NCBI GenBank assembly: GCA_905250105.1
Contig: CAJNOC010000253.1
Location: forward strand, 23,720 to 48,154
Reading direction: 5' to 3'
From: Brachionus calyciflorus
Lineage: Eukaryota
Length of the DNA: 24,435 nt
Below the pieces are notes generated by a model. The model searched no databases. It was given only the letters and a program-made list of their open reading frames with translations, and was not told where the DNA came from. Below are positions 2,127 to 24,435 of this stretch, in pieces (the first letter of the stretch is position 1; each line of letters begins with the position of its first letter). The position numbers were made by a program, and so were the translations under genes.

Positions 2127-2820
2127 TTATTTATGCAATTGGTTGACTTTGATCGTAAAAAAATCTGCTAAGTCTCCATCTTCCATTTCCTCTAATTTTT
2201 CGTATTGAATAACTCTATCATAAAATTCATCATCCAAATCCTCAAAATTAAAAGCTTCTAGATCGTTTGTTAAATCATTTAAATTGCTAATCGAAAAAAG
2301 TCTAAAAAAATTATTATTTTTAGCAATAGCTTGCAAAATTGCTTCAAAAGTACCATCGCCTATAAATAAATTCATCAAGATATGATTGCAAAAATTTTCT
2401 ATTAACTCCTCTCTTTTCTTTAAATGTCCTTTCGCTTTAAATGTCCGTTCATAAAGACCAAATACCCAAATACGCTCGCTTTTTAAATCTTTTCCTCTAT
2501 TGTGCTTGACGCCAAAAAACATCGATTCATCAATCTCCATTCCTTGATTTGTACCACCAAGAAATATTCTTTTAGAAATATTCTATTTATTTATTTAGCT
2601 CTTGTAGGCAAATTGATCTTAGCATCTTAAAAATTGCCGATTACTTGAGTTGATGTCATTTTGACAAAGGGCACGAAAACTATTTTTTCAAATAGATATA
2701 TGAGTTGTTACATCTCCATGAAAATTGATCCGAAACATTACTTCTTTTAGACTAATTTGTTATTTTATTACACTTTGGACAAATAGCTGGATCAGATTTA
2801 ATAATATTTTTATTACTCAT
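2127..2820 (-). pseudogene. ISXO2-like (IS1595-family DDE) transposase relic with internal stops and frameshifts
   Basis: Minus-strand translation gives an N-terminal zinc-ribbon-like 'MSNKNIIKSDPAICPKCNKITN*' and 'FSWRCNN' (around 2700-2820). It then gives 'MEIDESMFFGVKHNRGKDLKSERIWVFGLYERTFKAKGHL...' (2127..2540), matching the '(E/I)DESYFGG..KRGRG...VFG(I/L)ERGG' core of ISXO2-like transposases. The reading frame is broken between the pieces. Confidence 0.6.
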
Positions 2821-2999
2821 TTATATTTCTTTATTCTATCGAAAGACTTTTTAAAGCTTGACTGATCATGACATGGTAAGGGACTAATCGTTTTTATTAA
2901 AAAAAGTATTGTTTGTACAAAATCAATCAATACTTATAGAAGATATCGAGCTTATTTATTATTAATTTTAAATAAAATCTCATAAATTTAGTTTTTTCT

Positions 3000-4500
3000 A
3001 TTGTTATAAAGCACATAACATTAAAGAACAGAAATTTCTAGATAAATTAGAAGAATTTATCGATTCCCTAAATTTAGATGAACCATTGTTTATCATTGGG
3101 GATTTAAACTTAGATTACAGCTCGAATGTTAATTCGAATATTAGGAATTTACTGATAACAATGATATTTTGAAATTCGTTGAAAAACCGACATGAATTTT
3201 CGAAAAGTTTTAAAAAAAAAAGAATACAGCATAGTGTTCATCAACACTAATTGATTTACTCCTCCAAATTTGTGATCTAGTCTATGAAACGATAATGATT
3301 TACTGAGACTCAAACATCAAAGTTAAGAAATTTATGATAATATATCCTTCAGCTTATGAAAATGATGAACTTTTAAATATAATAATTTCTTAAAGTTGAC
3401 CTGGAATCAGTGAAATACCAACAATAATATTTAAATAATAATCTATTAAACTCAGAACAACTTTTGCCCCCTTTTTAACTATGCAGTTTTATCTTATAAT
3501 ATACCAAATGAACTGTAATAAAACTATTGTTTAAGAAAAAAGGCTTAAGTGAACATTTAAATAATTATCGTGGAATTTCAATCCTCTGTAATTGACAAGC
3601 GTACTATAAATAAATAAATCGAGATATAGAAATAGTTTTTTTAGATAAATTTATTGGGTAGAGTTGAAATTAATTCAGCACAACGTTTTATATGATGACA
3701 GGAAATCGCTCTTTTACACCTCACTTCAGTTGCCAAACTATTTGAAAAACTGATTTATAAGCAAATACTCGAATATCTTAATACCAATAATTTCATTTCG
3801 GGTGACCAGCATGGGTTTAAGGCTAATTTCAGTATTAAATCTGCGCTACATGAAATAATAACAGAAATCAACTAGATTAGGGGTAAACGCTTGATTGGTT
3901 TACTTCTTTTTATCGATTTCCGAAAAGCTTTTGATACAAAAGATTATTCAAGTTTCAAGGTTAATTAACAGGCTAGTGCCCATATCTATTTGTAGACTGA
4001 TTAAAACTTCGTTTATTCATTAAAATAAAAATAAAAGAAATAAACATATTTAAACATTAATTTTTTTTTTCATAAAAAAAAATTAAATTTTACTTAATTT
4101 CAAAAAAAAAAACATTTTATTTTCAAATTTAATTTATCAAAAATCTTAATTTATTTTTTATAAATCTAGTTGATATTGTTAAACATTGACAATTTAAATG
4201 TACTAAACTTAAGTACCAATTTATCAACAACGAATTTATTCGATAATCTTGAAAAAATATATTTAAATGTTTTTCTGCACTTTTTGTTCTTGATCCACAT
4301 TCAATAATTTGATCTTTATTTCTTAAATCATATCGGTCTTCAGTTCAGGCCTTAAATTAATTAAAACTTATTTTGATAATCGTCTTCAATTTGTGAAAAT
4401 TGACGATATTATTTCCGATCAATTAGAGTTAAAACTTGGTGCTTCACAAGGCATTGTTTTTGGGGGCTTAACTTTCGTCGAAGAGTAAATATAATTTGGA
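3000..4500 (+). mobile_element. Degraded non-LTR retrotransposon (LINE) fragment: APE-type endonuclease remnant followed by reverse transcriptase, multiple stops and frameshifts
   Basis: Translations: 'EFIDSLNLDEPLFIIGDLNLDYSSNV' (about 3040-3130) and 'STLIDLLLQICD' (about 3240), endonuclease-like. 'LTSVAKLFEKLIYKQILEYLNTNNFISGDQHGFKANFSIKSALHEII...LLLFIDFRKAFDT' (3700-3960), RT motifs. 'LIKTYFDNRLQFVKIDDIISDQLELKLGASQGIVFGGLTF' (4350-4480; RT 'GVPQGSVLGPLLF' region). Confidence 0.7.
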
Positions 4501-5110
4501 ATGTTATCAGCATTGGCTTATAAAGAAAATTTGCCGTTTTCTTTTTAAATTTTAAATGATAACAATTCACCAGTTTCAGATTCAGAGCCAATTAAATCTT
4601 GAAAACCAAAACTAAATTAGAGCCAAAACTGATCAATATTTTTAACAATCAACGGAAAAAAACTTTAAAAATTTTAACCTCGTTTACAAATATTTAACAT
4701 CGGGAAAATTTTACTTAATATAACCATGTTATAAAAAAAGGTAATTTTATATAATTTTTTATTAATAACAATTTACTAGTTAGATTAAAAATGTCACTGA
4801 CAAAAAATGATGAAAACAAAACAATTTTGTATAATCTTAAGAATAATGATTAGTTTTTTATTCCATCTTATGGCAAATACAATGACAATATGAAATGGAC
4901 TTATGCCTCCTTCTTCATAAAGTTTTTGAATTCTTGATAAAAGACCTTAAGCTGAATTACGATCATTTTTGTAAGAGAAAAGAAAATAATATTAATTTGT
5001 TTTTTCCAAAGTTTTGTGAACTTTATGTAAAATCTGATTTAAATTTTAAATTACCTTACTGGAAATATGTTAATGGTAGAACTCATATAAAATTCTGCAA
5101 GATTAATACA

Positions 5111-5390
5111 TATAACACTTGCAACACTTATTATGTTTTAGGAATAGTGACATTTAAATTATAATAATAACACTTAGTAACACTTAATTTTATTTCTTAA
5201 TAACACTTTATTTCTGATATAAAATATGTATCGATTTCAAAGGGCGATCAAAATATAGATCTTTCTTAATAAATTTCATTACAAGCTTAAAGAATGTTTT
5301 ATGTTAATACATTATTTATTCTTATTTTCAATCATAATTTAGGTCTTACTATTCGTAAAACATAATAAGTGTTGCAAGTGTTATAAGTGT
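5111..5390. repeat. Hairpin/MITE-like element bounded by a perfect 29-bp inverted repeat ('ataacacttgcaacacttattatgtttta')
   Basis: 5111..5139 is the exact reverse complement of about 5362..5390. The interior is AT-rich with reiterated 'taacactt' motifs. Track ORF 4895..5164 runs into it and is not credible. Confidence 0.7.
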
Positions 5391-5935
5391 TTGTATTGCA
5401 GAACTTTATATGAGTAATGGTAGATTGGTTGTTTTTAATGTATTTAATTAGTCAAATTCACTATTTTAGAAACGAATAGCTAAGACTAGAGTCAATTTCA
5501 AGAAACTTGACTGCTACTGAAGTAAATAAATTAAGAGCATTTAACTCTTGAGCTGCAATAAATCAGCTTGGGTTACTTTTGTAACGTTACAAAATTCCTT
5601 TTTGAGTATATAGAATTTTACTAAGAAAAAAAAGTAAAAAAATATAAATTTTCTTAGAAAATTAAATTAAATAATTAATTCTTCATTTGAATACCTGTAT
5701 CTGATTCTGACTCAAAATTGTCATTAAGTAAAAAACGAATGTTCGAATTCCATATTTTACGAAAGTATCAACAGATATTTCTTTATCCCTTAGAACCGCA
5801 ATATTTGGTTGCAATATTGGATCGTTAATAGTTTCTAATTTATTTCTTAGTGGAGGCTTTTTATGTTAAGACAAACATATAGTTATTAAAAAAAATATTA
5901 GATTTGACTACACTCAAATGCAAATTTAATTTTAA

Positions 5936-6855: not shown

Positions 6856-7407
6856 CGAAAAATTAGGTAATCGAATTTTGGAGAAAAAAATTTCTTCCAG
6901 GTAAAAAATGTTGAAATAAAAATTAATTTGTATTGACAAATTATCATTAATTTTTGTTAACATGATGATTAATAATTTTGATAATCGAAATTTGAAGTAT
7001 CATGAAAAGGAAAAGAAATGGTTTTTTTGTTTATAAAACTTAAAAATATTTGAAATATTTCGTTTGAAATTAGCCCAAATACTGTAATTAGATTAGTATA
7101 AAAGCATGTCAAAATTTAATGTAAGAAATCATCATTTTAATTTCAAATTTTTTACAAAATTCAAAAGTCAAATAATTCAAAAATGGTATACGCTTATGGT
7201 TTAGTCGCTCCAGTTTTCGCCGTTACTCCAGTCGTACCAGTTGTACCAGTAGTTAGACCGGTTGCAGTAGCAGTCCCATATGTTGCACCAAGATGGGTAT
7301 GGTATTAAAAAGAGTCCTTTCTAGGCTTATTCTAAATTAGCTCCTTATGTTTATAGTTTTCCTTTATAAATATTTTTTTAGTAAATAAATTTTAGCTAGA
7401 AAATATT
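6856..7407. repeat. Copy B of the ~553-bp segmental duplication (partner 465..1017)
   Basis: See copy A. Confidence 0.9.
7183..7308 (+). CDS. Small 41-aa Val/Pro/Tyr-rich ORF, copy B (identical peptide to 792..917)
   Basis: ATG 7183, TAA 7306-7308. Same TATA box and flanks as copy A. Confidence 0.45.
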   Translation: MVYAYGLVAPVFAVTPVVPVVPVVRPVAVAVPYVAPRWVWY

Positions 7408-7463: not shown

Positions 7464-8117
7464 TTAGCATTTAACTTCACAAATCACATGAAGATATGCA
7501 TATGGTTCTCGATTATTCACACCCTGATATTCACGTTTTTCTATGATATATTTATCATACAAAGCATAATTACTACACTCATCTGAACATTCAATATTTA
7601 TTAAATTGTTATAACCATCTACCCATTTCCATTTCTTTTTATCTATTGAATAATAAGCTCCTAACCAATAACCATTATCACTTGAATTCGAATTAGGTAT
7701 TATATTAGGCTGTAGAATTCTTTCACCAATTAATGCTTTACCCAAAAAATTAAAATTAAATTTTTAAAATTATTTTTTTAAAAAATTAAACTGACATCTT
7801 AGAAAATCAAGATCCTCTGAAATATGAATTACGGGTAAATGTCCACCAAACGATAAGCAATAATCCTCGGCAAATAACCATGGCATTTGTAAATCGGCTA
7901 TTGAATACAAATAATTTGTTGATGGTCGTTGAATAAAACCAAAGTTCTGCGGATACAAACAAACTTCATATTTGTTCAAAACAGCTTTGGAAAAAAGAGT
8001 TTTAAAACCATTATTGGAAAATTCACGACCAAAGTTTGGTGATTCAATGACAGGTAAGCTAAAGAAATTTTCAATTAGAAAAAATAGTATGAAAAAATAT
8101 CTTTTGAAATTTTTCAT
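7464..8117 (-). CDS. Secreted C-type lectin domain protein, two exons: 8117..7796 and 7735..7464 (60-nt intron 7795..7736, donor GTCAGT, acceptor AAG)
   Basis: ATG at 8117. Signal peptide 'MKNFKRYFFILFFLIENFFS'. Exon 1 encodes the N-terminal half of the C-type lectin domain ('WLFAEDYCLSFGGHLPVIHISEDLDFL'). Exon 2 encodes 'GYWLGAYYSIDKKKWKWVDGYNN...ECSNYALYD...YAYLHVICEVKC' (WIGL / W.W.DG / C...C C-terminal motifs). The two track ORFs (7770..8117; 7464..7745, TTG-started) share a frame and are separated by stops that a 60-nt phase-1 intron removes. The exact splice sites are inferred. Confidence 0.7.
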
Positions 8118-8196
8118 TTTTAATGATAATCATTTAAAAAAATTTAATTGAAAAAATTTATTTTAATTAAAAAAAATTTAAATTTTAAATTTTTTT

Positions 8197-8493
8197 TTAT
8201 TTGAATTTACAAGTTTTAATTTTTTCATCAAAAACTAAGCCAATGGGACAATTCATAATAAATAATTTTCCATTAGAACAAATTCTAAATTTATTTAAAT
8301 AATTTTTGATTTCACTCAAATGTACGAATTTATTACATTTTATTTCATCCTTTGACAATTTATTATCTTTTTCGATCTGAGCCAAACCTAGTTCCAGGTC
8401 AATAAATTCAGCCGGAACATACTTTTGAATATACGGATAAGATTCCACGTTTATTAGAAAAATTAAGACTAAAACAATAGATTTTAAATTCAT
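8197..8493 (-). CDS. Small secreted protein (98 aa) with a peritrophin-A / CBM14-like chitin-binding core
   Basis: ATG 8493. Signal peptide 'MNLKSIVLVLIFLINVES'. 'CNKF...FRICSNGKLFIMNCPIGLVFDEKIKTCKF' matches the 'C.NG....CP.GL.FD.....C' core. Only 4 Cys instead of 6, hence moderate confidence. Confidence 0.45.
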   Translation of the reverse strand: MNLKSIVLVLIFLINVESYPYIQKYVPAEFIDLELGLAQIEKDNKLSKDEIKCNKFVHLSEIKNYLNKFRICSNGKLFIMNCPIGLVFDEKIKTCKFK

Positions 8494-9687: not shown

Positions 9688-11024
9688 TTAATCAGGCACA
9701 TCCAAAACAATAATAACATTATTAGGCTTTAAACTCGAATTATCAATTTGCTTATTATTATTACTTTTTAAAATAAACTCATTTTTAAATTTATTATTGT
9801 TATTTTTAAGCTTGAAAAAAAATGCCAATTTTGATTCTTTACGCTCAGATTTATCCATATCATTCTCATCCGTACTACTCGTATTACCAAATGTAATCAA
9901 TGACGAATTATCCGGTTCAGTATTCAATTCTCTATTGCTTTTCTTATTTGTATATTTAACATTTCCATACAATTTAAGCCATGGCACCCAATTAATCAAA
10001 TACTCACATAAATCTTTTTGTATGCCAAACCACCAAACATTACCCGTACGATTACTAAACGACAATAGTAAAAGACAAACATGAGATACTAATAATGGAA
10101 TAGTACATGAAAAATATGAGATAAAATCTTTTTGTTTTTTTACAATCTTATTTTGATAGTAATAATTTATAAAAATATCGTCTATGTTATAATTATTAGT
10201 AGTGGTCTCGAGTTGTTGGTCGAGTTTACTTATTAATAAAATAAGAAATGTTAAAAAACTAAAATATAAAATTGTCTTGAGCAAAAGACTGAGGAATTTT
10301 TGTGTAAAATTAGTCTGATATATGACATGTGTATCTTGTAGGCTTGATAATTCTCTACCATTTGAATTTCGCTGGGTTAAACGCGACGAAATTATGGTCA
10401 ATATAAACAAGTATAAAAGAATTATTAACCCGATTGACATACACAACCACATAGGTATCATTACTAACTTAAATTAGACTTAAATTTAGAATTAAAAAAT
10501 AAATAATTTTTTTTTTGTTACTTACTATCCATGACCATTGTATAGTTTGGTCTAATCTAAGAGCTATGAAAATAAATTGTAGAATGTTTAGAGAGCAAAA
10601 TATTTCAATTTCGTATGAACGATCATAACGTATTGACCATATTGTTAAAGCTAAAGATAATATGGATAGTATGTACAATGGTATGAAGCATATAGTCCAT
10701 GTTATGTAAATTAAATGATTATTTAATTTGTAACAAATAATAAGCTCGAATAATAAGAGTAATAAATTTGTTAAAAATGCGAATAACATTGATTTAAATT
10801 GGACAAATGTATTGCGATCAAATGGTACTGAATTGTTTTGGCTATTGTTTTTACGAGTCATACGAAACCATACACAACTACCTACAATCATACCGATAAA
10901 AGCTGTTAATTTCCATAGCCATAATGGTGTAAATACAATCCAATATGAAATTTGAATTGTTTGATCGAGACGTAATGAGAATAGTGTAAAGAAAATACTT
11001 GTACAAATTAGAACAAAAAATCGC
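9688..11024 (-). CDS. TMEM185: TMEM185 (FAM11) family multi-pass membrane protein; exons 11024..10526 and 10467..9688 (58-nt intron 10525..10468, GTAAGT...AAG); 5' coding exon not located
   Basis: Translation '[39 protein letters not shown]...[31 protein letters not shown]...NVWWFGIQKDLCEYLINWVPWLKLYGN...VLDVPD*' aligns to vertebrate TMEM185A ('[31 protein letters not shown]', '[26 protein letters not shown]', C-terminal 'MPD'). Upstream acceptor 'tttttaaag|G' at 11025/11024 in phase 2 means the first coding exon (about 13 aa) lies further 5'. Poly(A) signal 'aataaataaaa' just 3' of the stop on the minus strand. Confidence 0.8.
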
Positions 11025-12510: not shown

Positions 12511-15500
12511 ATGAAATTTGAAAATAATGAAATTATCTGCTTGGATATAAGCAGTAGTACACCGTATAAAAAGAAAAAATCAATTATTGATTTACTTACT
12601 TTAACAGGTGCCAAAGTATCGGGTATTCTTAATCGCAAGTCGAAATTATTAATCGTTGATCAACGACAAAATTTAGACTCGTATAAATTTCGAACGGCTT
12701 TTAAGCTCAATATACCAGTTGTTCATGTCGATTATTTTTTCAAGTTATTACTTGATAATGATTCAAGTGTTGATATTAAAGCCTATGTGATTAGAGATAA
12801 TACTAATGATAAAAAATTCGAAAAAGGAATTATTTCTGCAGGTTTTTTATTAATTTAAAAAATTTTTTTAAATTTAAATTTTTTATTTTTATTTATTAAG
12901 TATGTGAAAAGAAAGAATTTGATCTTGGTAAAATTAAGTGTTATTCGCCTGAAAATGATCCCTATTTGAATGAATTCGAATCGAGTGATTATCAAGTTAT
13001 AAAATGGATTGTTTTTCATGTAAGTAAAACATATGTATTGAAAAATTTTTTTTTTCTCTTGATAATTTTTCAATTAGTTAATCTTAATTTTCTTATTTAT
13101 TTATTTACAAAATAAATTAGCAATATTTATAATAAATACAGTCAGGTCGCGCTTTTATCACCCCATTTGTCCAGCTGAAAATGTGTGATAAAAGTGGATT
13201 GTGATAAAATTAAAAAATATAAAAAATTAATTTATTAGACCGAAAAAATAACAAAACAAATTTTTAAAAAACATATTATATTATAGTATATTTGCTGATT
13301 TAGCAGCTAAATACCATCTGTATAGAGCTTCTTCTACTAATGAAAATTAGCCGAGTTGAATTCCTGATTATTTACTAGTAGTTTCTTCATCGGCCAAATT
13401 TAAATACTTGTCTTTTACTTTAGAAAAATTTGGTAACTGTGGAACGCTCGACATTGAACTCTTCGGCTATTTTTGCATCAGTCTTATCTTTCGTCAATTA
13501 TAACTTTTTTTTATCGAATTAAGAATTTTTTGTCGTTTTTGGACCATTTTTATTTTTTTAATGAAAGAAACAAAGTAAAAAAATGAGGTGATAAAAGTAT
13601 ATAACATTTATTATGCATTGTATTAATAAAAATAAACATATTTCAGTGATTAAAAAGAAAATGGTGACTAAAATGGTGGTCTAACTAAATATTTTTTCTA
13701 TTGAAAAGTATTCAAGGCGATTTGTTCCTCAATTTTTTAGTGATAAAACCTAAATGTGACTAAAGTATGTGGTGATAAAACCGTGACCTGACTGTATGTA
13801 GTTTTACGTCAATATTCTTTCTAAAACTTTAATATTGAAATTTAAATAGACCATATTTTTCTAAAAAATAACTAAAGTGGTTTATTTAAAATTTAATTTT
13901 AACTAATTTCTAAATAATAAATTTCAGCAGACTTGTTATTTCACATCAATAAATTAATTTTATTAACATACAAAGGGCTAAAAAGGGCACAACAAAAAAA
14001 AAGATTTTTGATTTCGAAAAAACTAAAACCCACAATTTGTTCAGAATTTTTTCTTGTTTCAGAAATTGTATTTTTCAATACGGACAAGATTAGGCATTTT
14101 TTTGCTTTTTTTAAAGAATTTTTTCCGCTTTTTTCCGCATACTTTTTAAAATTTCAGAAATTAAACTTTTCTAAAAATTTTGCTTTCCTAGATTTTCATT
14201 TGAGGTAAAAAACTATATCTGAAGATAGTGTGGAAGTTTTGCATTTCCGGAACCTTATCTCAGAAACTAGAAGCTTTGATATGCTAGCATGTCCTTGACA
14301 GTATAAATAAGGATTCTATTCTTTATAACTTCAGATCGATCCAACTTTATATCTTATGTACTTATTAAATAAACTAGTTAAACAATATATTTTTGAACAT
14401 TTTCATTATTATTTTAAAGGAGCACAATGGAAACCGTGAGATTGTATTTGAGATAAATTCAAATTCAACTAAATACCGTCTAAGATGGGAAACAATTAAA
14501 CAAAAAGTTGAAATAAAAACCTATTATTCAGATGACTCATACGAAATATACGAATTATTTCGTCACTTAACAAAGTCATTTATGAACCAAAAAATTTACA
14601 AATATGACAAAATTCTAATGAACTCAAAATCGGGATCCACAAGGCTACAAAATGAATACGTTAAATCTCTCGTTGAAAATTCATCATTAATGTCAGAAGA
14701 TCTAGTGAATTTTTTAAATTACATATGGAGTGAATCGATTGGAAATTTAAACAAAATATTTCAAACAAATAGAAAATTCTATGGACTTTCAAATGAGAAA
14801 TTAGACAAAGCTGAATTAATTCTATACAAACAAAAAGAAGAATTTAAAAAAATTCCCTCGGAAAGAATTGATTTATCAAAAGAATTCTATTCACTTTTAC
14901 CATTTAGACCAAGTTATTTTAAACCGATTATAATTCGTAAGAATTTAAACGATCAATTCGAATTAATTCAAGTCTTACGTGACATGATGAACATAGGCGA
15001 AGAGACAAATTGGAATTTAAGATCTTCTGTTAATTCCATATATCGTTCAATCGGTTGTTTCATAAATCCGACAACAAATAATGACATTAAAGAAAAAATT
15101 CTACAAAATCTAGACAATAATTTAGAATTATTAAACGTGTATGAAATAAGTCGACCTGGTGAAATTTTAAACTTTAATAGACAAAATTTAAATAACATTC
15201 AATTATTATATCATGGTAGTAAAGCGTCGAATTTAGTTGGTATTTTATCACGTGGTTTATTGACACCGAAAAAAATTCTATCATCAGAAGGATCAGATAT
15301 TTTAGAAATGCTCGGACACGGTATTTATTTTTCCGATAGTCTATCAACTAGTTTAAAATACGCATGGCCAAGTGAGTGTAAAAATACACAATTAATTCTA
15401 GTGTGTGAAGTGGCTTTGGGAAAATGTAAAGATCTATTTGATTTTGAGTTTGATTTAACACAAGCACCCGAGGGTTATAATAGTGTTCATGGCGTTAAAG

Positions 15501-18500
15501 CAACACCGGATACTCAATCAAAATTTGAAGATAGTGAATATTGTGTTTATAACACTGAACAATGTAGAATTAAATATTTATTAGAGGTCAAGGCTAAGGA
15601 TAGCAAGTTGAAAAAGTATGGTAATTTATTACAAAATGAACAGGAAAATGTTTCAAATTGTATTCTAAATGAAAATATTGATTTAAATTTAATTAAAAAA
15701 AAACAAGCTAATTCAGAACTTAAGACTTTGAATGGTAAAAATTTACCATTAAAATCAGTACATGTAAGAGCTGAAATAATAGACATGGTTAGCAAGGTTG
15801 TTATTTTTCAAGAATATGAAAATAACGAGGATGAATCAATTGAGGCAGAATACTTATTTCCATTAAACGATACGGCAACTGTGTGTAATTTCGAAGCGTT
15901 TATTAATGATAAGCACATAGTTGGTGTTTGTAAAGAAAAAGAAATAGCTCGTAAAGAGTATAAAGAGGCTATTCAACAAGGTAAAGGTGCTTATTTAATA
16001 GACCAAGAGACTAGTGAAATATTCAAAGTTAACGTTGGTAATTTACCAGCAAAAGCTAAATGTGTTATCAAAATAACTTACATTTCCGAGCTGGAAATTA
16101 ATAATGAACAAATTATATTTCGCTTACCGAGTAATGTATGCCAATGGAAATTATTAGAAGAGAGAGTAAAATTACAAGAAAGTGTTGTGTCAAAATTTAT
16201 AAACAGAATGGGATTTATTAAAAAATCTTCATTTAAAGCTAATATTATAATGCCATTTGAAATAAGAGCTATTAAATGTTATACTCATGAATTGAGTATT
16301 AAAAAAACATCATGTCAAGCTGTTTTAGAAATGGGTGAAAAGATAAGTTCATTAGAAAATGATGATACTTTAATAATAGCTATTGAAATAGCGACTATAC
16401 ACATGCCTAGAATGTTTGTTGAAGATTATATAGATGAGGATAAAAATGAGAGTAGAGCTTGTATGGTTTCGTTTTATCCTGAATTCGATATGGGTGATAG
16501 ATTAAAACAAGAAATACCAATAGTCAATTTTGTTATTGATTGTTCGAATTCTTTAAATGAGAATAATTTGATAATACAATCGAAAAAACTCGCTTTAATC
16601 ATGTTAAATTTATTGCCCAAAAATGCTTTATTTAACATGATTATTTTCGGTTCCGATTACCAAGAATTATTTCCATATCCTCTAGCAGTAACTAATGAAA
16701 ACATTGAAAAATGCAAGGAATTTATTTTCAAAAGCATAACAGCTAATAAAGGAAATACAGATTTGTTAAGATATTTACAAAAAGAGAATCTTTTAGATTT
16801 TCAAAGAAATTATATTTTAATATCAGATGGTCATATGACAAGATCAAACGATTTAATTCGTTATTTGTCAACAGAGCAAAAAAATCGAATTTTTTCATGT
16901 AGTATTGGTAATTTAAGTAATAATAATTATTTACTTAAATTGATAGCCAATTTGACTAAATCAAATTATGCATTTTTTGACATGAGTGCTCAGAGTAAAT
17001 GGCGCGAGAAAATACACGATTTAATGGATAAAATTCAACAACCACCAGCTATTAGTAATATTAAAATTGAATGGCAAAATTATCGTGATCAACATGACTC
17101 GGACTCTTTTGACTATTGTTATGCTCCGAATAAAATTAATTGTTTATTTAATGGTAGACGAGTAGTCGCCTATGGTTTCATACCAAATTGTCAACAAGCT
17201 ATTTTAAAAGCAACTATAAATGGATTTGAATATGAAACCATGGTCACGTGTCCAGAATTAATGATAACACGTGGTGATCTAATACATAAATTAACAGCTA
17301 AAAGTCTAATTGACGATTGGCAAAATGGGATTTTATGTCATGATGATAAAATTCAAAACGATTTGATCAAACAAAAACTCAAGCATAAAATTATAAATTT
17401 AAGTAAAAAGTTTAGTATTACGAGTGAATATACGAGTTTTATAGCCATTGAGGATAGGGAACCCAATGAAATTTGTGCGAATCAAATTCAAGTTAGGGAT
17501 TTATTAGATAAAGAAGATTTAAAAATTGATATACTACCTTATATGGGCTATGAAAAAAATTCTCTTACTGAAAAAAATAATGAAATTCACTTTGAGTCTC
17601 TAAGTTTTTATGATAAAAATTATTTATTTGATTTTTATTCAAAAAATGAGGATCTTATTATGTCAAATAGAGAACGATTATTTTTAGCTGACGAATATAA
17701 GAACAGATGTATGATTAAAAAAGCCATTGAGATCTTAAGCTTATGCGAAAAGAATCAAGATATTGACGATTTAGTTGAGTCTTACTCGAAACTTAAACCA
17801 AAATTGGTTATAAAAATGTTAACTGGTAAGACAATTTCTTGTGAAGTAGGTGACTTGAATACAGTTGATGATTTAAAAAAGTTAATACAAGATAAAGAAT
17901 GGATACCGATTGATCAGCAAAGACTTATTTTTAATGCTAAACAATTAGAAGATTCGACATGTTTAAGTGAATATAATTTAGAAGATGGTTCAAGTATTTT
18001 TTTAGTTTTAAAATTACGTGGTGGGCCTGAAATCCGTACGAAAAAGATTTTTAACTTTTCTAAACCAACTTTAAGTCAACCCAGAGAGTTTATTGAATCA
18101 GAATCATTAGAAGATGAAGATAAACATTTTAGCTGTGATGAAGACTTAGAGATAGGAGAATTTGAAGAAGAAGATAAACATTTTAGCTGTGATGAAGACT
18201 TAGAGATAGGAGAATTTGAAGAAGAAGATAATCAAGTTAAAGAAATTGAAAAAAATTTAGAACGATTAGAAAAAGATTTAGAAATTAATAAAACTAGTGA
18301 AATAAAAAAGGAGGAAATCAAAATGAACAATTTAAACAATCAGAATAATACGAATTTAAAAAGTAAAGAGAAATGTTTAAATAATCAAGTTTTAAAAGAA
18401 TGTGAAAAAACGCTACTTCCTCCTCCTCCTCCTCCCCCTAAAGCTATTCCGTCTATATTTGGAGCCAGTCAACAGCTAGCATTTCCAGCTCAACAACAAC

Positions 18501-19522
18501 AATTGAAAAGAAATAAAGGTTTTTCTCAAAATCAAGTTTTAGAAAACTTAGCAATGCCATCTCCTTCTTCTTCACCATTTCCACCTGCTTCATTTTGTTT
18601 TGGAACTAGTAAAATACAACAACAAAATTTCAAGCAGTTTCAACAAATGGGTTACTCTTCAATGCCTTCTGCTAGTCAGCTCAGTTCAAGCATTTTTTTA
18701 AATGCCTCTTTTATAGAGCCACAGTCTTTAATTTCACGAATAACTAGGGATAATCTGAGTAATAAACAACAGTCACAATGTGATTCAGGAAAATCAAATG
18801 AAAGTTTATTTAGCAACAATTCAGAAAAAGGAATGATATTAGAAGAAAGTTTATCAAGTTCTAAATTTATTTCTAATGCTTTTTGTACAGATGAACCTGA
18901 AAAAACAATACGATTTAGAAGAACTACAAAAAAACTTTCAATTAGTCGATCAAGGATGGAAAGAGAAATATCCAATGAAAATGATTCAAATCAGAATAGT
19001 TTATTGTTGAATCAGTCGAAAAATATTAAAATAATAAATACCAAAACCCTAAATGAATATTTAAATGAAAATTTATCAATCAAAGCAAGATTTTTATCTT
19101 TAGAAGATATAGACGCAGTCGATTTGGATCAATTTGCGAGACTTGATTTAAAATTTCGAATAAAGAATAGTGAATTTGATTTGAACGGTGTATTGGAGTT
19201 TTTAAATTTGATGGGCTTGAGATCATTTGGTGAAGAAATGGCCAAGCAAATTAAAGAAATGATTTACAAGTTGATAATTTTGGTCTTGTTTAGCAAAATT
19301 TTATTGGGTGAGTCAGATGTTAAATTAGAAAATTTAGATCAAATGAAAACAAGCTTGTTTGAATGTTGTAATTTACGTTTTTCCTTTAGACCGGAGATCG
19401 AAAAATTCATCAGATCAAGCATTGAATATGTTGAGAAAATTCAAATTAAATATCCAAATGTTTGTGATAGTTTAGAATTAGGAAGAAATTGGAATAAAGT
19501 ATTAAGCAGTTGGTTTTTTTGA
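12511..19522 (+). CDS. PARP4: Vault poly(ADP-ribose) polymerase (PARP4) orthologue, about 1850 aa; exons 12511..12841, 12901..13019, 14420..19522. Domains: BRCT, PARP catalytic, VIT, vWA, embedded ubiquitin-like domain, C-terminal domain similar to the vertebrate PARP4 C-terminus
   Basis: Exon 1 is a BRCT domain ('[43 protein letters not shown]...') with the same BRCT-first architecture as vertebrate PARP4. Intron 1 is 59 nt (12842..12900). Exon 2 ends in phase 0 at a perfect GTAAGT (13020). Intron 2 is 1400 nt and contains a MITE. Acceptor 'ttattattttaaag|GAG' at 14419/14420 is phase 0; the track ORF start at 14393 is TTG, not a real start. Exon 3, PARP catalytic: 'LLYHGS' (His), '[15 protein letters not shown]' (Tyr), 'SEYCVYN' (Glu), '[15 protein letters not shown]', '[11 protein letters not shown]', all near-identical to human PARP4. 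VIT: '[23 protein letters not shown]...[25 protein letters not shown]...[21 protein letters not shown]'. vWA: '[13 protein letters not shown]...IISDGH'. C-terminus: '[14 protein letters not shown]', compare human 'LELGNDWDSATKQLLG'. Confidence 0.85.
13149..13794. mobile_element. Tc1/mariner-like non-autonomous element (MITE), 646 bp, 24-bp terminal inverted repeats, TA target-site duplication, inside PARP4 intron 2
   Basis: Left TIR 'cagtcaggtcgcgcttttatcacc' (13149..13172). Right TIR reverse complement 'cagtcaggtcacggttttatcacc' (13771..13794), 22/24 match. Flanking 'ta' at 13147-13148 and 13795-13796. Sub-terminal 'gtgataaaa' reiterations. No transposase ORF. Confidence 0.8.
17801..18025 (+). 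other. Ubiquitin-like domain embedded in the PARP4-like CDS (aa 1137-1211 of the exon-3 ORF), ending LRGG followed by Pro
   Basis: '[75 protein letters not shown]' compared with ubiquitin '[76 protein letters not shown]'. In frame with both flanks ('...SKLKP|KLVIK' and 'LRGG|PEIRTKK'). Confidence 0.85.
18116..18235 (+). repeat. In-frame 54-bp tandem duplication (about 2.2 copies) inside the PARP4-like CDS, encoding '[18 protein letters not shown]' twice
   Basis: 'gaagataaacattttagctgtgatgaagacttagagataggagaatttgaagaa' is repeated at period 54 (18116 and 18170). Confidence 0.9.
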
Positions 19523-21194
19523 AAATAATTTTCTAAATTTTTAATTTTGAAAATTTATAGCATTCAAATTCTTTATGTTTTGTTGCTTTTTTAGTTTATC
19601 AAATAAAATTTTTAAAAAATATCTTTGTTTCAATTTTTTAATTTCCACAAACGAATATAATTCTAAATAATTATCGGCTGCTTTTGCACCTGGAATTCAA
19701 GAGCCCGAAAGTCTTGAAGAGCGTCTCAAGTTAAAAAGAATAAATTTTTTTATTTTGAGAGGGGTCGCTGAATATCTCAAAAAATGTAAAAATATTATTT
19801 TAATTAACGGTGCCGGTCTTAGTACATGTATGACTGTTTTTTAGATTCAAAAATATTTCAATCAATAAATTATTTTAATTTTATTCTAAATTTTAAGTCG
19901 CAGGTTTACCTGAAGCTTTAGAAGTCCTATGCTCATATGGATGTGCTTTGACTTAACGTTAGGGCAAAGGGCATATTTAGACTTTATTCTAAAGGACCCT
20001 CGACCATTTAATGAAATAGTTTTTTCAACAAGCTAAAAATCCTTCTCTATCACATTATATCCAAAGTATCTCGGTACAAAAAGACAAAGTCAAAAGAGTT
20101 TATACTCCAAATATAGACTGCTTGGAAACTAAAAAAATTTAAAACGGGCCGAGGGTTTTTTAAACCCGTCATTAAAAAGTGCAACTGCGACTCCTTGCAC
20201 CCCTCCCGCCGTTAGGAAGAGAATAAACAGTCCACCCAATTCTTCAACGCCGCCTTCTTCAAAAAAATCAGCCAATAAGAAAAAGTGTCAAATTCAAAGA
20301 TGTAATCAAAATAAATCCAACTTTACTTGTAATGGCTGCTAAAAGCTTCTTGTGGGCCATGTCTGCATGAAATGGTTTTAAAAGCATTGTGTCTAAGTTG
20401 ACGATTAGAACACTTGGTATTCCCAAGCGACCACTTTCTCGTCAAAGTAATAACCGGGCTCAATTTTGCTTAACTTCGGTGATCGACCGAGAATCGGTGC
20501 ATTACAAGTGATCACTCATTTATTCTCCTATTTAAATTTTTAGAGAAAATTAAAAAAAATTTTTAAAATTGAAATAAATCTTTATTTTGCCGAATTTTGT
20601 TTACCTTTTTCAGAATTTTCGACTATAAAATAAAAAAATGAAAAATTAAATAAATTCGCAATTACTAAAAAGGGAGTTTTTAAGAAATATCCTTGGTTTT
20701 CAAATTTTAATTTTTTAAAAATTTTTTTTTTATTTGGGTGAAACTTTTTTGTGTCAGGAGTGGGGACTTGAACCCGGACCTTTGAATCAACTAGGGTCGC
20801 TAATTAATTCAAAATCCCAGGTCCCCCATCCAACGACTCGAACCATTGGGCCATCACCGGCCTTAATTTTTTTAAAACTCTTTCAAAAATGTAGAAATGT
20901 AAAACATTTACAATAAATTACATTTTGCCAAAAATGCCTGAAGTGAATTTCTGAATTGTATTAATTTGTTAGTTGAATTAACTATTAATTATTTAAATAC
21001 TAATTAATTTTTAATTCAATAATATTTGAAAGGGCTCACGGCTTTCAACACTTTATTCACACCTGTCAGGTTTTCAACATTTTTTTTTCTTTCTTTAGCC
21101 GCTTTAAAAAAAGGTCCAAAAATAATCGAGAAAAAGTGTAAAAAAATTGTTGAAAGATTGGTAATTATAATAATAATTATAAAAAATTTAAATA

Positions 21195-23418
21195 TTGCAA
21201 ACCAAAGAATTGAATAATTTTTTGATTCAATTTCAAAAAATAATTATGCAAACAAATTACACAATTATACCAACATCAAGAAGTGGACACTACTTATTTT
21301 ACCAAAAACATCTCTTTTATAAAGTAAAACCAAAAAATCCTGTGACAGGAATAACGACTTGGCGATGTCGCCGTTATCATAATGAAAATGTAAAATGTAA
21401 AGCTTTTTTAAAAGCAAACGATGAAATTGTTTTAAGTTTGACAAATGAACATGAAAAACATGATGAAGTAGGTCAATTTGAAACAGTTATGCTTTCAGCA
21501 AAACAAGAAATTAAGGAAAAAATAAGTACGGTGAGAGTCCCAGTTAAAATGTTATTTTAAGAAACTATTTGTAAAACAATTGAGAAAAATAATTTTACGT
21601 GAAGTGAAGCTGCAAAATTCGTACCAAAATTTAAAAATATAGAAAAAAATTTATACAAACAAAAGCATTTAAATGAAATAAAAAAAAATAAATTGCCAAA
21701 AAATTTGTACGAAATAACCTGCGAAGACGAATACGAAATATATAAATTAACCACCGATAAGAAACGTTTTTTGCTATTTGATTTAAAAGATCAGTCAAAT
21801 GACGATCGAATCTTATGTTTTTCATCAGATGCCAACTCCAAATTTTGAGTAAATGTCAAAGATGGCATGTTGATGGGACTTTCAAAGCTGCTCCAATTTT
21901 GTTCTATCAACTTTACTTAATTCATGGATGGTACAAAGATGAAATGCATTCATGCTGTTATATTTTTTTGTCCAATAAACAACAAAAAACATATGAGAAA
22001 ATGATTTTTAAATTTTAAAAAAGTGCAAAAGATCAAGGATTTGACTTAAAACCTCTGATGATTATAAGCGATTTTGAAATAGCTGCTATAAATGCTTTTG
22101 AATCAGGATTCAATAATGTAATAATGAAAGGGTGTCATTTTAATTTTACCCAATCTATATGGAAAAATATTCAAAAAATGGTATAAGTGATGAATATAGT
22201 CGAGTTGACGCAGTTTACGAGTGGCTAAATATGTTTAAATCATTGGCATTTATCAAACCAGAATATATAGAAAGTGCTTGGCATTTAATTGGACGATTTA
22301 TTCCATCGTATAATCAAAAATTTCAAGATTTACTTATTTTTAGAGATACATGGTATGGTAATGAGAGAGGAAAGTTTTCACATTCTTTGTGGAATCATTT
22401 TTACACTGAAGGGCCACGTACTAATAACCATGTGGAAGGGTATAATCATAAAATAAACAACTATATAGATTATACCCATCCACACATATATTCAGCAATT
22501 AATACTTTAAAAGTTCTTGAAACTTCGACTGGTTTGAATTATTATCAGCGCGAGTTAGGTGGCTTAAGTCAATTTCCAAGGAGACCAAAAGACATTCAGC
22601 CAGATGTAATGATAAACTATTTAAAAAATAAATTAGAAGTTGGCGATTTAGGAATTTTACAATTTTTAACGCGTATGGGTAACCTTTTTCGGTTTGTTAA
22701 ATCCTTTAAAAAAACAAGATTTACTTTCACTGAAAATTTAATCTCAAATGAGTCTTTTAAGGCTGTAGTTTCAATTTTTAAAATATCTAATCAATCTTTT
22801 AATTTTATTCCTTGTTATATAAAAAATAATCGGGATTTTATGGTCATCATGGTAAAAAATTTTCGAACTAATAATGGTATTTGCTTTTATAATTCAAATT
22901 ATTACGATTTAAACCATGATTGTGTCCTTAAAAAATGGGATTGTTATTATGGAATTTGTTTACAGACAACTGGTGACGGAAATTGTTTATATAATGCTAT
23001 ATCCTTAGCACTTTTCGGGAATGAATCCAGTTCAAATAAAATAAGGTTATGTATGGTATTTATTATTCTAGAATATGAAGATTATTTTCGTAATTTAGTC
23101 AAAAGTTTTCAATAAACTGATAGTTTTGAAAAAACATTAATAGATTCTGCTGCTCTTGGTATTTTTGGTAATGATTTTAATATGGTAGCATCAAGTCTTT
23201 TGTTTCTCAGGCCTATAAAATGCTATTCAATTGGTAATATTGCGTTCGATGTTGATACAGCTAAAAAAAATCTAATGCCAATTTACTTATCACTAAAAGA
23301 TGTTCATTTTACACCTATTGTATCTATCAACAATTTTTTTTCAATAGCTCCTACAACTGGTGATCACTTGTGTTTTATTAAATATGGTTTTGGTGACTTA
23401 AAACTTTATCAATTTTGA
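21195..23418 (+). mobile_element. Decayed Mutator-like (MULE) DNA transposon coding region: FLYWCH zinc finger (ATG 21246..21560), MULE DDE transposase core (about 21830..22640), C-terminal OTU-like cysteine protease domain (about 22900..23400); at least one in-frame stop and two frameshifts
   Basis: FLYWCH: 'SRSGHYLFYQKHLFYKVK...WRCRRYHNENVKCKAFLKANDEIVLSLTNEHEKHD'. MULE: 'WHVDGTFKAAPILFYQLYLIHGWYKDEM..CYIFLSNKQ' then (after TAA 22016-22018) 'KDQGFDLKPLMIISDFEIAAINAFESGFNNVIMKGCHFNFTQSIWKNIQK' then (frame change about 22160-22180) 'YTEGPRTNNHVEGYNHKINN'. OTU: 'TTGDGNCLYNAISLALFGNE' (catalytic Cys) and, after another frame change (23115/23182), 'KDVHFTPIVS' (His motif). Element termini not resolved. 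Confidence 0.75.
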
Positions 23419-24435
23419 ACTTAAAATTGCATTAAAATTGTATATTCTTTATTATTTGCAATATTCATAATTAAAAAGATATAATTTTATTGGTATTTTA
23501 TTTTAACGTATTAAAAGATTATTCATAAATTAAAATATAATATAAGCTTCCTGTGTTAATTTTTTTATCACTTTTCATTTCATTTTCACCGAGCGCTTTG
23601 TATAAAGTAAAGTGTTGAAAAACAGTAGAACCATTTGAAAACCATAATACAATAAATTCTCTTGTATTGAATTATTGTTTTCCTTTTCCTGTTTTATTTT
23701 TTTTCGCTTTTTATAAAAAATATATATAAAACAAGGATTGGGTTCCCCTCCTTAACTCCCCTTTCTATTCTAATATGCTAATATAAACTTAAAATTTTAA
23801 AACTCGTATCTGTACTCTAATTATCTAAACTGTAAATATATAGAGTAGTTAGGAATCTGTTACCGCATCTGCCCGATATTGTAACTTGACTCTAGAGGTC
23901 AATGGGAATAATATAGATTCCCTTACGCATAGACTATGCGTAATACATAAATAATTTTTTTAAAATTTTTTAAAAATAAATCACAGCTAACGGGTATCGA
24001 TCCCGGACTCTCGCATCTCGTTGACGAGTGACTCACCAACTAAGCCACAAGAACTCTTAGAAAATGTTAAATAAAAATTAATATTAAATACGATAAATTT
24101 GAACTTAGTAAAATTTTACTCTGGGTCTTTTTTTTTAAATAAAAAAACCCACTTTAAATTTAATTTTTAAAAAAAGTTAATTATTTTTAATGATAAATTT
24201 TCAAACCTAAAAAAAATTAAAAAAGAGAAAGAGAAATTTTTTCTCTATCTAAAAGCGTGTTTATTTTTTTTTTATATTTTTATTTTTTTTGCGCAACCCC
24301 TAAAAGTTCGGTCTGGTGTTTACGTAACTTGCCACTTCAATGATCGGACGAGAACCAGTTTATTCAACGTAATAGAGTCCTAAACATTTATTGACTTTGG
24401 GGCTGTGAATTTCATGTCAATTCGCTCATTTCAAT

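Follow-up and report, generated by a model that had tools for sequence, protein, structure and literature searches.

In the genome of the rotifer Brachionus calyciflorus, three protein-domain signatures follow one another on the 3' side of a PARP4-like gene. Do they belong to a single mobile element, and can that element still work? The stretch examined here, referred to as the window, comprises 24,435 nucleotides (contig CAJNOC010000253.1 of assembly GCA_905250105.1, positions 23,720 to 48,154) and has a G+C content of 24% to 32% throughout. We read window positions 21246-23418, with a probability of about 90%, as a pseudogenized autonomous, intronless DNA transposon of the Mutator-like element (MULE) type with a single open reading frame (ORF), located 1.7 kb downstream of the PARP4-like gene, whose polypeptide would have acted in three steps. 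The copy has decayed and belongs to a lineage of Phantom-like MULEs, seen in rotifer and metagenome sequences, with a predicted OTU deubiquitinase module. A sequence-only reading had proposed a decayed Mutator-like element whose transposase has a FLYWCH finger at its N terminus and an OTU domain at its C terminus, and hidden Markov model (HMM), profile, fold, and comparative evidence all bear this out for a single ORF.

The gene starts with an ATG at 21246 and terminates with a TGA at 23416-23418, and three reading frames (a, 21246-21833; b, 21833-22177; c, 22177-23418) can be stitched into about 724 codons once repaired. Three B. calyciflorus relatives (P0001, P0002, and P0003) align from the same methionine as the stitched window protein. 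This 724-residue protein was used as the Pfam query, with the OTU part also scored on the C-terminal 230 residues alone. FLYWCH (PF04500; 28.4 bits, cutoff 23.6, E 1.9e-6) and MULE (PF10551, at residues 207-303; 39.7 bits, cutoff 27.6, E 6.9e-10) score above their cutoffs, and OTU (PF02338) is borderline, with 21.8 bits for the whole protein and 23.6 bits for the C-terminal part against a cutoff of 23.3. These are the searches that the sequence-only reading had suggested, and all of the motifs it quoted lie where it had placed them, in the order it gave and on the + strand.

The FLYWCH finger contains TTWRCRRY (21354-21377), VKCKAF (21390-21407), and NEHEKH (21444-21461), its cysteines lying in WRC and VKC and its His in HEKH. 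The MULE core contains WHVDGTFK (21863-21886), IISDFE (22061-22078), and GPRTNNHVEGYN (22411-22446), and the three catalytic codons are present and aligned with those of the relatives (D1, 21872-21874; D2, 22070-22072; E, 22435-22437, within TNNHVEGYN). The C/DxxH motif of MULE transposases sits between D2 and E; in the window it reads CHFN (22133-22144) and in the relatives CHFH. From general knowledge of MULE transposases we take these residues to be the D, D, E, and CxxH of the core. The OTU motifs GDGNCLYNAIS (22972-23004) and KDVHFTPIV (23296-23322) include the catalytic Cys (22984-22986, DGNCLY) and His (23305-23307, VHFTPIV), and the frame 22177-23418 continues from the C-terminal region of the MULE part into the OTU module, with similarity to the relatives unbroken.

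The window copy is dead and unable to make a transposase, being interrupted by four premature stops and two frameshifts (Table 1) and having CxxH changed to CxxN; the degenerate CxxH, as judged by alignment, is consistent with decay of this copy. The uninterrupted transposase ORF that marks an autonomous active copy is absent. At the frameshift near 21833 the relatives read SD(V/I)QL(E/Q)IL, and at that near 22177 they read WKNIQK(V/L)GL. The in-frame TAA at 22016-22018 had been recognized correctly from the sequence alone, as had a change of frame near 22170, which is the 1-nt deletion at about 22177. A further frame change placed near 23150 does not exist, as the frame from 22177 to 23418 is continuous and interrupted only by the TAA at 23113-23115, and three lesions had been passed over (the TAA at 21558-21560, the TGA at 21600-21602, and the 1-nt deletion at about 21833).

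It is very unlikely that the locus is instead a functional or domesticated host gene whose apparent stops and frameshifts reflect recoding, introns, or errors of assembly. The frameshift near 22177 does follow a run of six A residues, a typical site of sequencing error, and the D, D, E, Cys, and His catalytic codons are all retained. However, the four stops (three TAA and one TGA) fall in columns occupied by ordinary residues within conserved blocks of the relatives, the alignment leaves no extra sequence for an intron at the lesion sites, and the relatives are single ORFs without introns. The standard code is in use in the host, as seen in a neighboring uninterrupted ORF of 1,709 codons that is 100% identical to an annotated protein, and the B. 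calyciflorus gene models recovered include no protein from this locus, the best match being 58% identical. An alternative genetic code or readthrough (TAA as Gln and TGA as Trp) was rejected because the frameshifts would persist and because the neighboring ORF uses the standard code. We note also that an origin of the stops by C-to-T changes resembling repeat-induced point mutation was considered and set aside, as the inferred ancestral residues (E/D, L/I, K/I, and Y) give no consistent transition signature.

Comparison with relatives indicates that the FLYWCH, MULE, and OTU parts belong to one element. Three B. calyciflorus gene models are colinear in alignment with the stitched window protein: P0001 (58% identical) has FLYWCH and OTU with an internal gap, P0002 (45%) has MULE and OTU, and P0003 (62%) has FLYWCH, joined to the beginning of the MULE core, and is gapped. 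P0001 and P0002 count among the independent cases of the FLYWCH-MULE-OTU order. An ENA metagenome contig (L001) codes for FLYWCH-MULE followed by one stop codon and then PDGNCLFN in the same frame, and two JGI metagenome contigs (L003 and L004) both carry an uninterrupted 745-residue ORF (P0094) that matches Pfam FLYWCH and MULE and has the OTU module at residues 554-726 (HMMER with the module profile described below). P0094 aligns with the window family by hhalign with a probability of 100% over 654 columns at 31% identity. In all, searches with local HMMs of the family recover this succession, first the MULE core and then the OTU module, in 12 proteins other than that of the window, P0094 among them, with the junction kept down to 31% identity, so the concern, raised from the sequence alone, that the segments might be unrelated insertions falls away. 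More distant relatives in the spider Stegodyphus and the bdelloid Rotaria are FLYWCH-MULE proteins lacking the OTU module, and a more distant metagenome relative is likewise FLYWCH plus MULE.

In a neighbor-joining tree of 92 OTU modules, built without bootstrap and indicative only, every MULE-linked module falls inside a single 28-tip clade that holds none of the OTU modules from another transposase family or from long B. calyciflorus proteins; Helentron-like proteins failed the coverage filter and are thus not among the tips. The pattern fits one acquisition of the OTU module followed by coinheritance, rather than a chance juxtaposition at this locus. The latter, in which a FLYWCH-MULE pseudogene would lie beside or nested with an unrelated OTU fragment, for example from a Helentron (commonly OTU bearing), is extremely unlikely and on the comparative evidence largely refuted. 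Relatives of the OTU module do exist in other elements, in the Helentron-like proteins P0122 (PIF1, AP endonuclease, and OTU) and P0171 (Helitron_like_N, PIF1, and OTU), both recovered directly by the OTU profile of the window family, and in P0059, P0067, and P0124, metagenome proteins of 617 to 815 residues that belong to a different, uncharacterized transposase-like family. Against such a juxtaposition are the one continuous frame that joins the MULE C-terminal region to OTU, the junction kept in the 12 other proteins, and the separate clade of MULE-linked modules, without OTUs of the other transposase family; moreover, helicase, Rep, and endonuclease remnants were not found nearby.

Because the Pfam OTU match of the window copy is borderline when taken alone, profile and fold evidence is needed to settle the assignment. 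A profile of the module, built from four sequences (the window, P0001, P0002, and P0004), matches human OTUD5/DUBA (PDB 3pfy) with an E value of 4.7e-7 from the catalytic Cys to the His motif, and the remaining PDB matches up to E = 1 are all OTU-type deubiquitinases (OTUD7B, OTUD1, A20, VCPIP1, viral OTUs, and Legionella LotA). Exhaustive HMMER searches with this profile yield 977 representatives at E <= 1e-3, of which 212 also pass E <= 1e-10, and Pfam OTU is matched by 88 of the 119 module relatives scanned (E <= 1e-3; best E, 2.6e-29). An AlphaFold model of the homologue P0014, which aligns end to end, at 49% identity, with the C-terminal 269 residues of the window protein, was computed from a 119-row alignment and has a predicted local distance difference test (pLDDT) score of 86.8 and a predicted template modeling (pTM) score of 0.80. 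When this model is compared with the PDB by Foldseek, all of the top 50 matches are OTU domains, led by OTUD3 (TM score, 0.82), OTUD1 (0.77; root mean square deviation, 2.8 Å), and DUBA (0.74), with A20, Cezanne, and nairovirus OTUs likewise among the matches. The catalytic Cys (DGNC) and His (HF) motifs are kept in P0001, P0002, P0004, and P0094. The profile and the homologue model together secure the prediction that the C-terminal domain of the window protein is an OTU cysteine protease. That it is an unrelated Cys- and His-containing domain resembling OTU by chance is hardly credible: Pfam OTU is reached only at threshold for the window copy and AlphaFold on a five-sequence alignment gave a pLDDT of only 34, but solved OTU structures are matched over the entire catalytic core, most of the relatives pass Pfam OTU, the confident P0014 model resembles OTU folds exclusively, and the DGNC and HF motifs are kept family-wide.

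Table 1. Positions in the window of the transposase gene, its domains and lesions, candidate terminal features, and the neighboring gene
Feature	Position	Strand	Basis or detail
Decayed single-ORF transposase gene, FLYWCH - MULE DDE - OTU	21246..23418	+	Three-frame translation; tblastn of stitched protein against the window; alignment of relatives
FLYWCH-type (WRKY-GCM1 superfamily) zinc finger	21267..21461	+	PF04500, residues 8-69
MULE DDE catalytic core	21863..22446	+	PF10551; alignment with relatives
C-terminal OTU module: helical lead-in of ~65 residues (SIFKISNQSF...) plus OTU cysteine-protease core (predicted)	22771..23415	+	Pfam, profile, homologue model
In-frame TAA	21558..21560	+	Relatives have E/D in this column
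In-frame TGA	21600..21602	+	Relatives have L/I in this column
1-nt deletion (frameshift), ~21833	21831..21835	+	FSSDA ends at 21833; QLQILSK begins at 21833 in the next frame
In-frame TAA	22016..22018	+	Relatives have K/I in this column
1-nt deletion (frameshift), ~22177, after A-run	22175..22180	+	WKNIQK, 2 nt, GISDEY
In-frame TAA inside OTU domain	23113..23115	+	Relatives have Y in this column
Two direct copies of GGYTTTCAACAYTTT	21040-21057, 21069-21086	+	Upstream of ATG; repeat search, motif counts
Third upstream copy, GGTTTTCAA	20695-20703	+	Motif counts
Two inverted copies of the same motif, 3' of the stop codon: TTTCAACACTTT and GGTTTTCAA	23609-23620, 23635-23643	-	Motif counts
Best candidate for the complete element (3,082 bp), unverified	21002..24083	+	Exhaustive scan for terminal inverted repeats plus target-site duplications
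PARP4-like (vault PARP-like) gene	12511-19522	+	P0182 identity, Pfam

Several points weigh against the reading of the locus as one OTU-bearing transposon. The Pfam score for OTU is borderline, the structure model is that of the homologue P0014 and not of the window sequence itself, the tree has no support values, and the protease, deubiquitinase, and transposase activities are predictions only. Neither terminal inverted repeats (TIRs) nor a target-site duplication (TSD) is established and no second copy of the subfamily was found, so the boundaries of the element and its mobility as a unit are not demonstrated at this locus.

A 12-bp inverted match had been offered as possible degraded termini of the element. 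The match is real and in fact extends over 13 nt (21043-21055 and 23608-23620), but termini at 21044 and 23619 have neither statistical support nor a TSD: the best flank-to-flank local alignment scores 34, against 30.4 +/- 3.4 for shuffled sequences, and is thus not above chance as a TIR, and no TSD adjoins the 13-nt match. The short motifs around the ORF are enriched, with GGYTTTCAA matched five times against 0.84 expected (20695+, 21040+, 21069+, and 23635-, together with an unrelated match at 4599-) and TTTCAACAYTTT 11 times against 3.65 expected; being oriented as expected around the ORF, they are possible subterminal transposase-binding repeats. An exhaustive scan for TIRs with TSDs gave 13 matches (0 to 2 in shuffled sequences), mostly A/T runs, and the candidate at 21002/24083 is the only nontrivial one. 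Its ends, AATTAATTTTTA and TATTAATTTTTA (reverse complement), match at 11 of 12 positions, and a 9-bp direct repeat borders them, with TTAAATACT (20993-21001) on the left and TTAAATACG (24084-24092) on the right, i.e., TTAAATAC followed by T or G, but an end alignment as good arises in 23 of 500 shuffles and is within the chance range. There is no second copy of the subfamily within the window, and two metagenome scans (with the family alignment and with a degenerate GPRTNNHVEGYN DNA pattern) and a scan of viral contigs returned nothing or two short distant contigs.

The ends are clearer in the relatives. The L003 and L004 elements, of about 4.1 kb, are identical inside and diverge outside GGCTATGTAGTCACTCGTCGAG...ATCGACGAGTGACTAAAACCCG, and TAGTCACTCGTCGA occurs twice at each end in inverted orientation. 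The core of this terminal repeat, the 11-mer AGTCACTCGTC, occurs once in the window (24023-24033, - strand), 605 nt 3' of the transposase stop codon and oriented like the relative's right end. It has no left partner and a BLAST E value of about 0.4-0.75, and is probably a coincidence, although it would fit an element end near 24040-24083. L003 has a second called ORF (2981-3262, - strand; 93 residues; Pfam negative) between the transposase stop and the right end, and the corresponding region of the window copy contains no ORF of at least 40 residues.

The domain layout is real and common to the relatives, yet is built from combinations already described. The sequence-only reading had called the combination with FLYWCH uncommon, but FLYWCH is the norm in Phantom-type MULEs of animals, and PMC6446971 lists it both for that family and for several further groups of MULEs; OTU is the less common part. 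The Phantom family of animal MULEs (Marquez and Pritham 2010) is summarized as group 20 in PMC6446971, and the window family is likened to it by domain layout and host: both have an animal host and a single transposase ORF with FLYWCH N terminal to the MULE DDE core. The finger of the window copy is above cutoff (28.4 bits against 23.6) in a rotifer, and the nearest relatives outside Brachionus, in Stegodyphus and Rotaria, are FLYWCH-plus-MULE proteins. In contrast, Phantom appears without OTU in the summary of PMC6446971. The same source lists the Hydra MULE MuDR-6_HM (group 14) with an "Ovarian Tumour Gene" motif, and Medicago MULE transposases are fused to an OTU-superfamily protease (PMC1702500). 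Both resemble the window family in joining a Mutator-superfamily transposase to an OTU-type papain-like protease, but, compared by description only, MuDR-6_HM has no zinc finger listed and a cnidarian host, and the Medicago elements are in a plant. MULEs bearing ULP1, such as KI-MULEs and Kaonashi, are well known, as cited in PMC2836005, and also carry an accessory papain-fold cysteine protease specific for a ubiquitin-like modifier, although theirs is ULP1 (a SUMO protease of clan CE) and not OTU, and in plants is often a separate ORF.

OTU domains are also a standard accessory of animal Helentrons and Ginger1 (PMC2836005, PMC6431247, and PMC4067079), which share this kind of transposon-borne module but differ in machinery, with Rep/helicase with or without AP endonuclease in the one case and a Gypsy-like integrase in the other. 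The cellular deubiquitinases OTUD5/DUBA, OTUD3, OTUD1, and A20 share the fold of the window module and its catalytic Cys and His motifs, but are only 14-20% identical to it and are host regulatory enzymes rather than parts of transposases. In the literature searched, which was incomplete in coverage and did not include Repbase, no paper was found on a FLYWCH-MULE-OTU arrangement or on Brachionus MULEs.

By analogy with these described systems, DNA binding, cut-and-paste chemistry, and a role for the OTU module may be assigned to intact members of the family, which would produce one polypeptide of about 720-745 residues acting in three steps. The FLYWCH finger, a WRKY-GCM1-type DNA-binding domain of MULE transposases (PMC1702500), is presumed to be sequence specific and would bind the element ends or subterminal repeats. 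The RNase-H-like DDE core would then excise the element and reinsert it by cut-and-paste, normally with an 8- to 10-bp TSD. Finally, the OTU papain-like protease, most likely a deubiquitinase, would act on the transposase or on host factors at the site of transposition, or alternatively would process its own polyprotein. Both ideas have precedents, with processing of transposon polyproteins suggested in one study (PMC1702500) and removal of ubiquitin or ubiquitin-like modifiers that aids transposition or the subsequent repair in another (PMC2836005). The deubiquitinase role is favored over polyprotein processing, given catalytic residues that are kept down to about 30% identity and a modeled fold closest to bona fide deubiquitinases.

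At the level of the family, a broader proposal can be put forward tentatively, with odds somewhat below even. The window copy would belong to a distinct FLYWCH-MULE-OTU lineage, unnamed in the literature searched, known to date from monogonont rotifers and from unassigned freshwater-type metagenome contigs, in which the OTU module with its helical lead-in of about 65 residues was acquired once, the same kind of module being shared with Helentrons and at least one other transposase family. If this is true, ubiquitin removal would be a recurrent, selectable need of unrelated mechanisms of DNA transposition and not an accident of one element. P0059, P0067, and P0124 have transposase-like motifs (D..SWALIN, C..HF, and TNN..EN.F), and the MULE profile aligns with them only in the OTU part. 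A similar OTU module also forms the C terminus of four long B. calyciflorus proteins (P0068, P0074, P0127, and P0147; 1,009 to 1,526 residues). The N-terminal parts of all seven proteins match no Pfam family, with the exception of a C2HC finger in P0127, and both sets may represent further OTU-bearing mobile-element families.

For annotation, the interval 21.0-24.1 kb in this part of the contig is to be flagged as a dead DNA transposon and not a gene, and several B. calyciflorus models named "OTU / FLYWCH / MULE domain-containing protein" are explained as transposon fragments. The locus adds one more transposon superfamily lineage that keeps a predicted OTU deubiquitinase fused to its transposase, and modestly strengthens the older proposal that removal of ubiquitin or SUMO assists transposition (PMC2836005). 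Its wider interest is limited to the family level, to a conserved, apparently once-acquired OTU module that is also present in Helentrons and another transposase family.

About 1.7 kb separates the stop codon of the PARP4-like gene from the transposase start codon downstream. The uninterrupted ORF of that gene (14396-19519, or 14393-19522 as alternatively delimited; 1,709 codons) is 100% identical over its full length to B. calyciflorus P0182, a PARP4-like protein of 1,865 residues with PARP, VIT, vWA, BRCT, and ubiquitin-like domains; this identity establishes the monogonont B. calyciflorus as the host. An exon-like ORF at 12511-12858 codes for BRCT (Pfam E, 2e-8), and the large ORF contains 2.3 copies of a 54-nt repeat unit (18106-18231). 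Between this gene and the MULE is a G+C-richer block (19690-20500, + strand; 32%) with sirtuin-like peptides in several frames (GAGLST, FRSP, DPRPF, and YTPNIDCLE). Pfam searches of single reading frames of the left flank gave no match, and a hand-stitched translation of the block matches SIR2 below threshold (E, 3.2e-4; 21.1 bits; cutoff, 24). The block probably represents either a pseudogene of a sirtuin or a gene with several exons. Two further G+C-richer segments (20745-20862 and 23985-24055) look tRNA-like by eye, with T-arm-like GGTTCAAGTCC and GGGATCGATACCC, but the tRNA-derived reading was dropped because ARAGORN finds no tRNA and Rfam has no tRNA match even at E <= 10. They may be remnants of short interspersed repeats, and 20772-20821 forms a hairpin.

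Other repeats and genes lie farther to the left. A direct repeat of at least 335 bp with about 98% identity and copies 6.4 kb apart (465-800+ and 6856-7191+) begins near 465/6856, is still running at 800/7191, and contains TTTCAACATTTT, a motif that also adjoins the MULE ORF; candidate identities are a sequence like a long terminal repeat, a short repeat present twice, and a segmental duplication. An 85-nt inverted repeat (5081-5165 and 5331-5415) is 86% complementary, with arms 165 nt apart, a geometry resembling a miniature inverted-repeat transposable element or a long hairpin. An ORF at 2127-2540 (- strand), by eye an ISXO2-like transposase fragment, has no Pfam match. Two other host genes lie on the - strand at 7464-8493 and 9688-10891, namely, a chitin-binding peritrophin-A exon (CBM_14 E, 7.6e-8, with a weak C-type lectin match, E, 0.006) and a TMEM185-like membrane protein split over two ORFs (Tmemb_185A E, 6.4e-16 and 3.5e-4).

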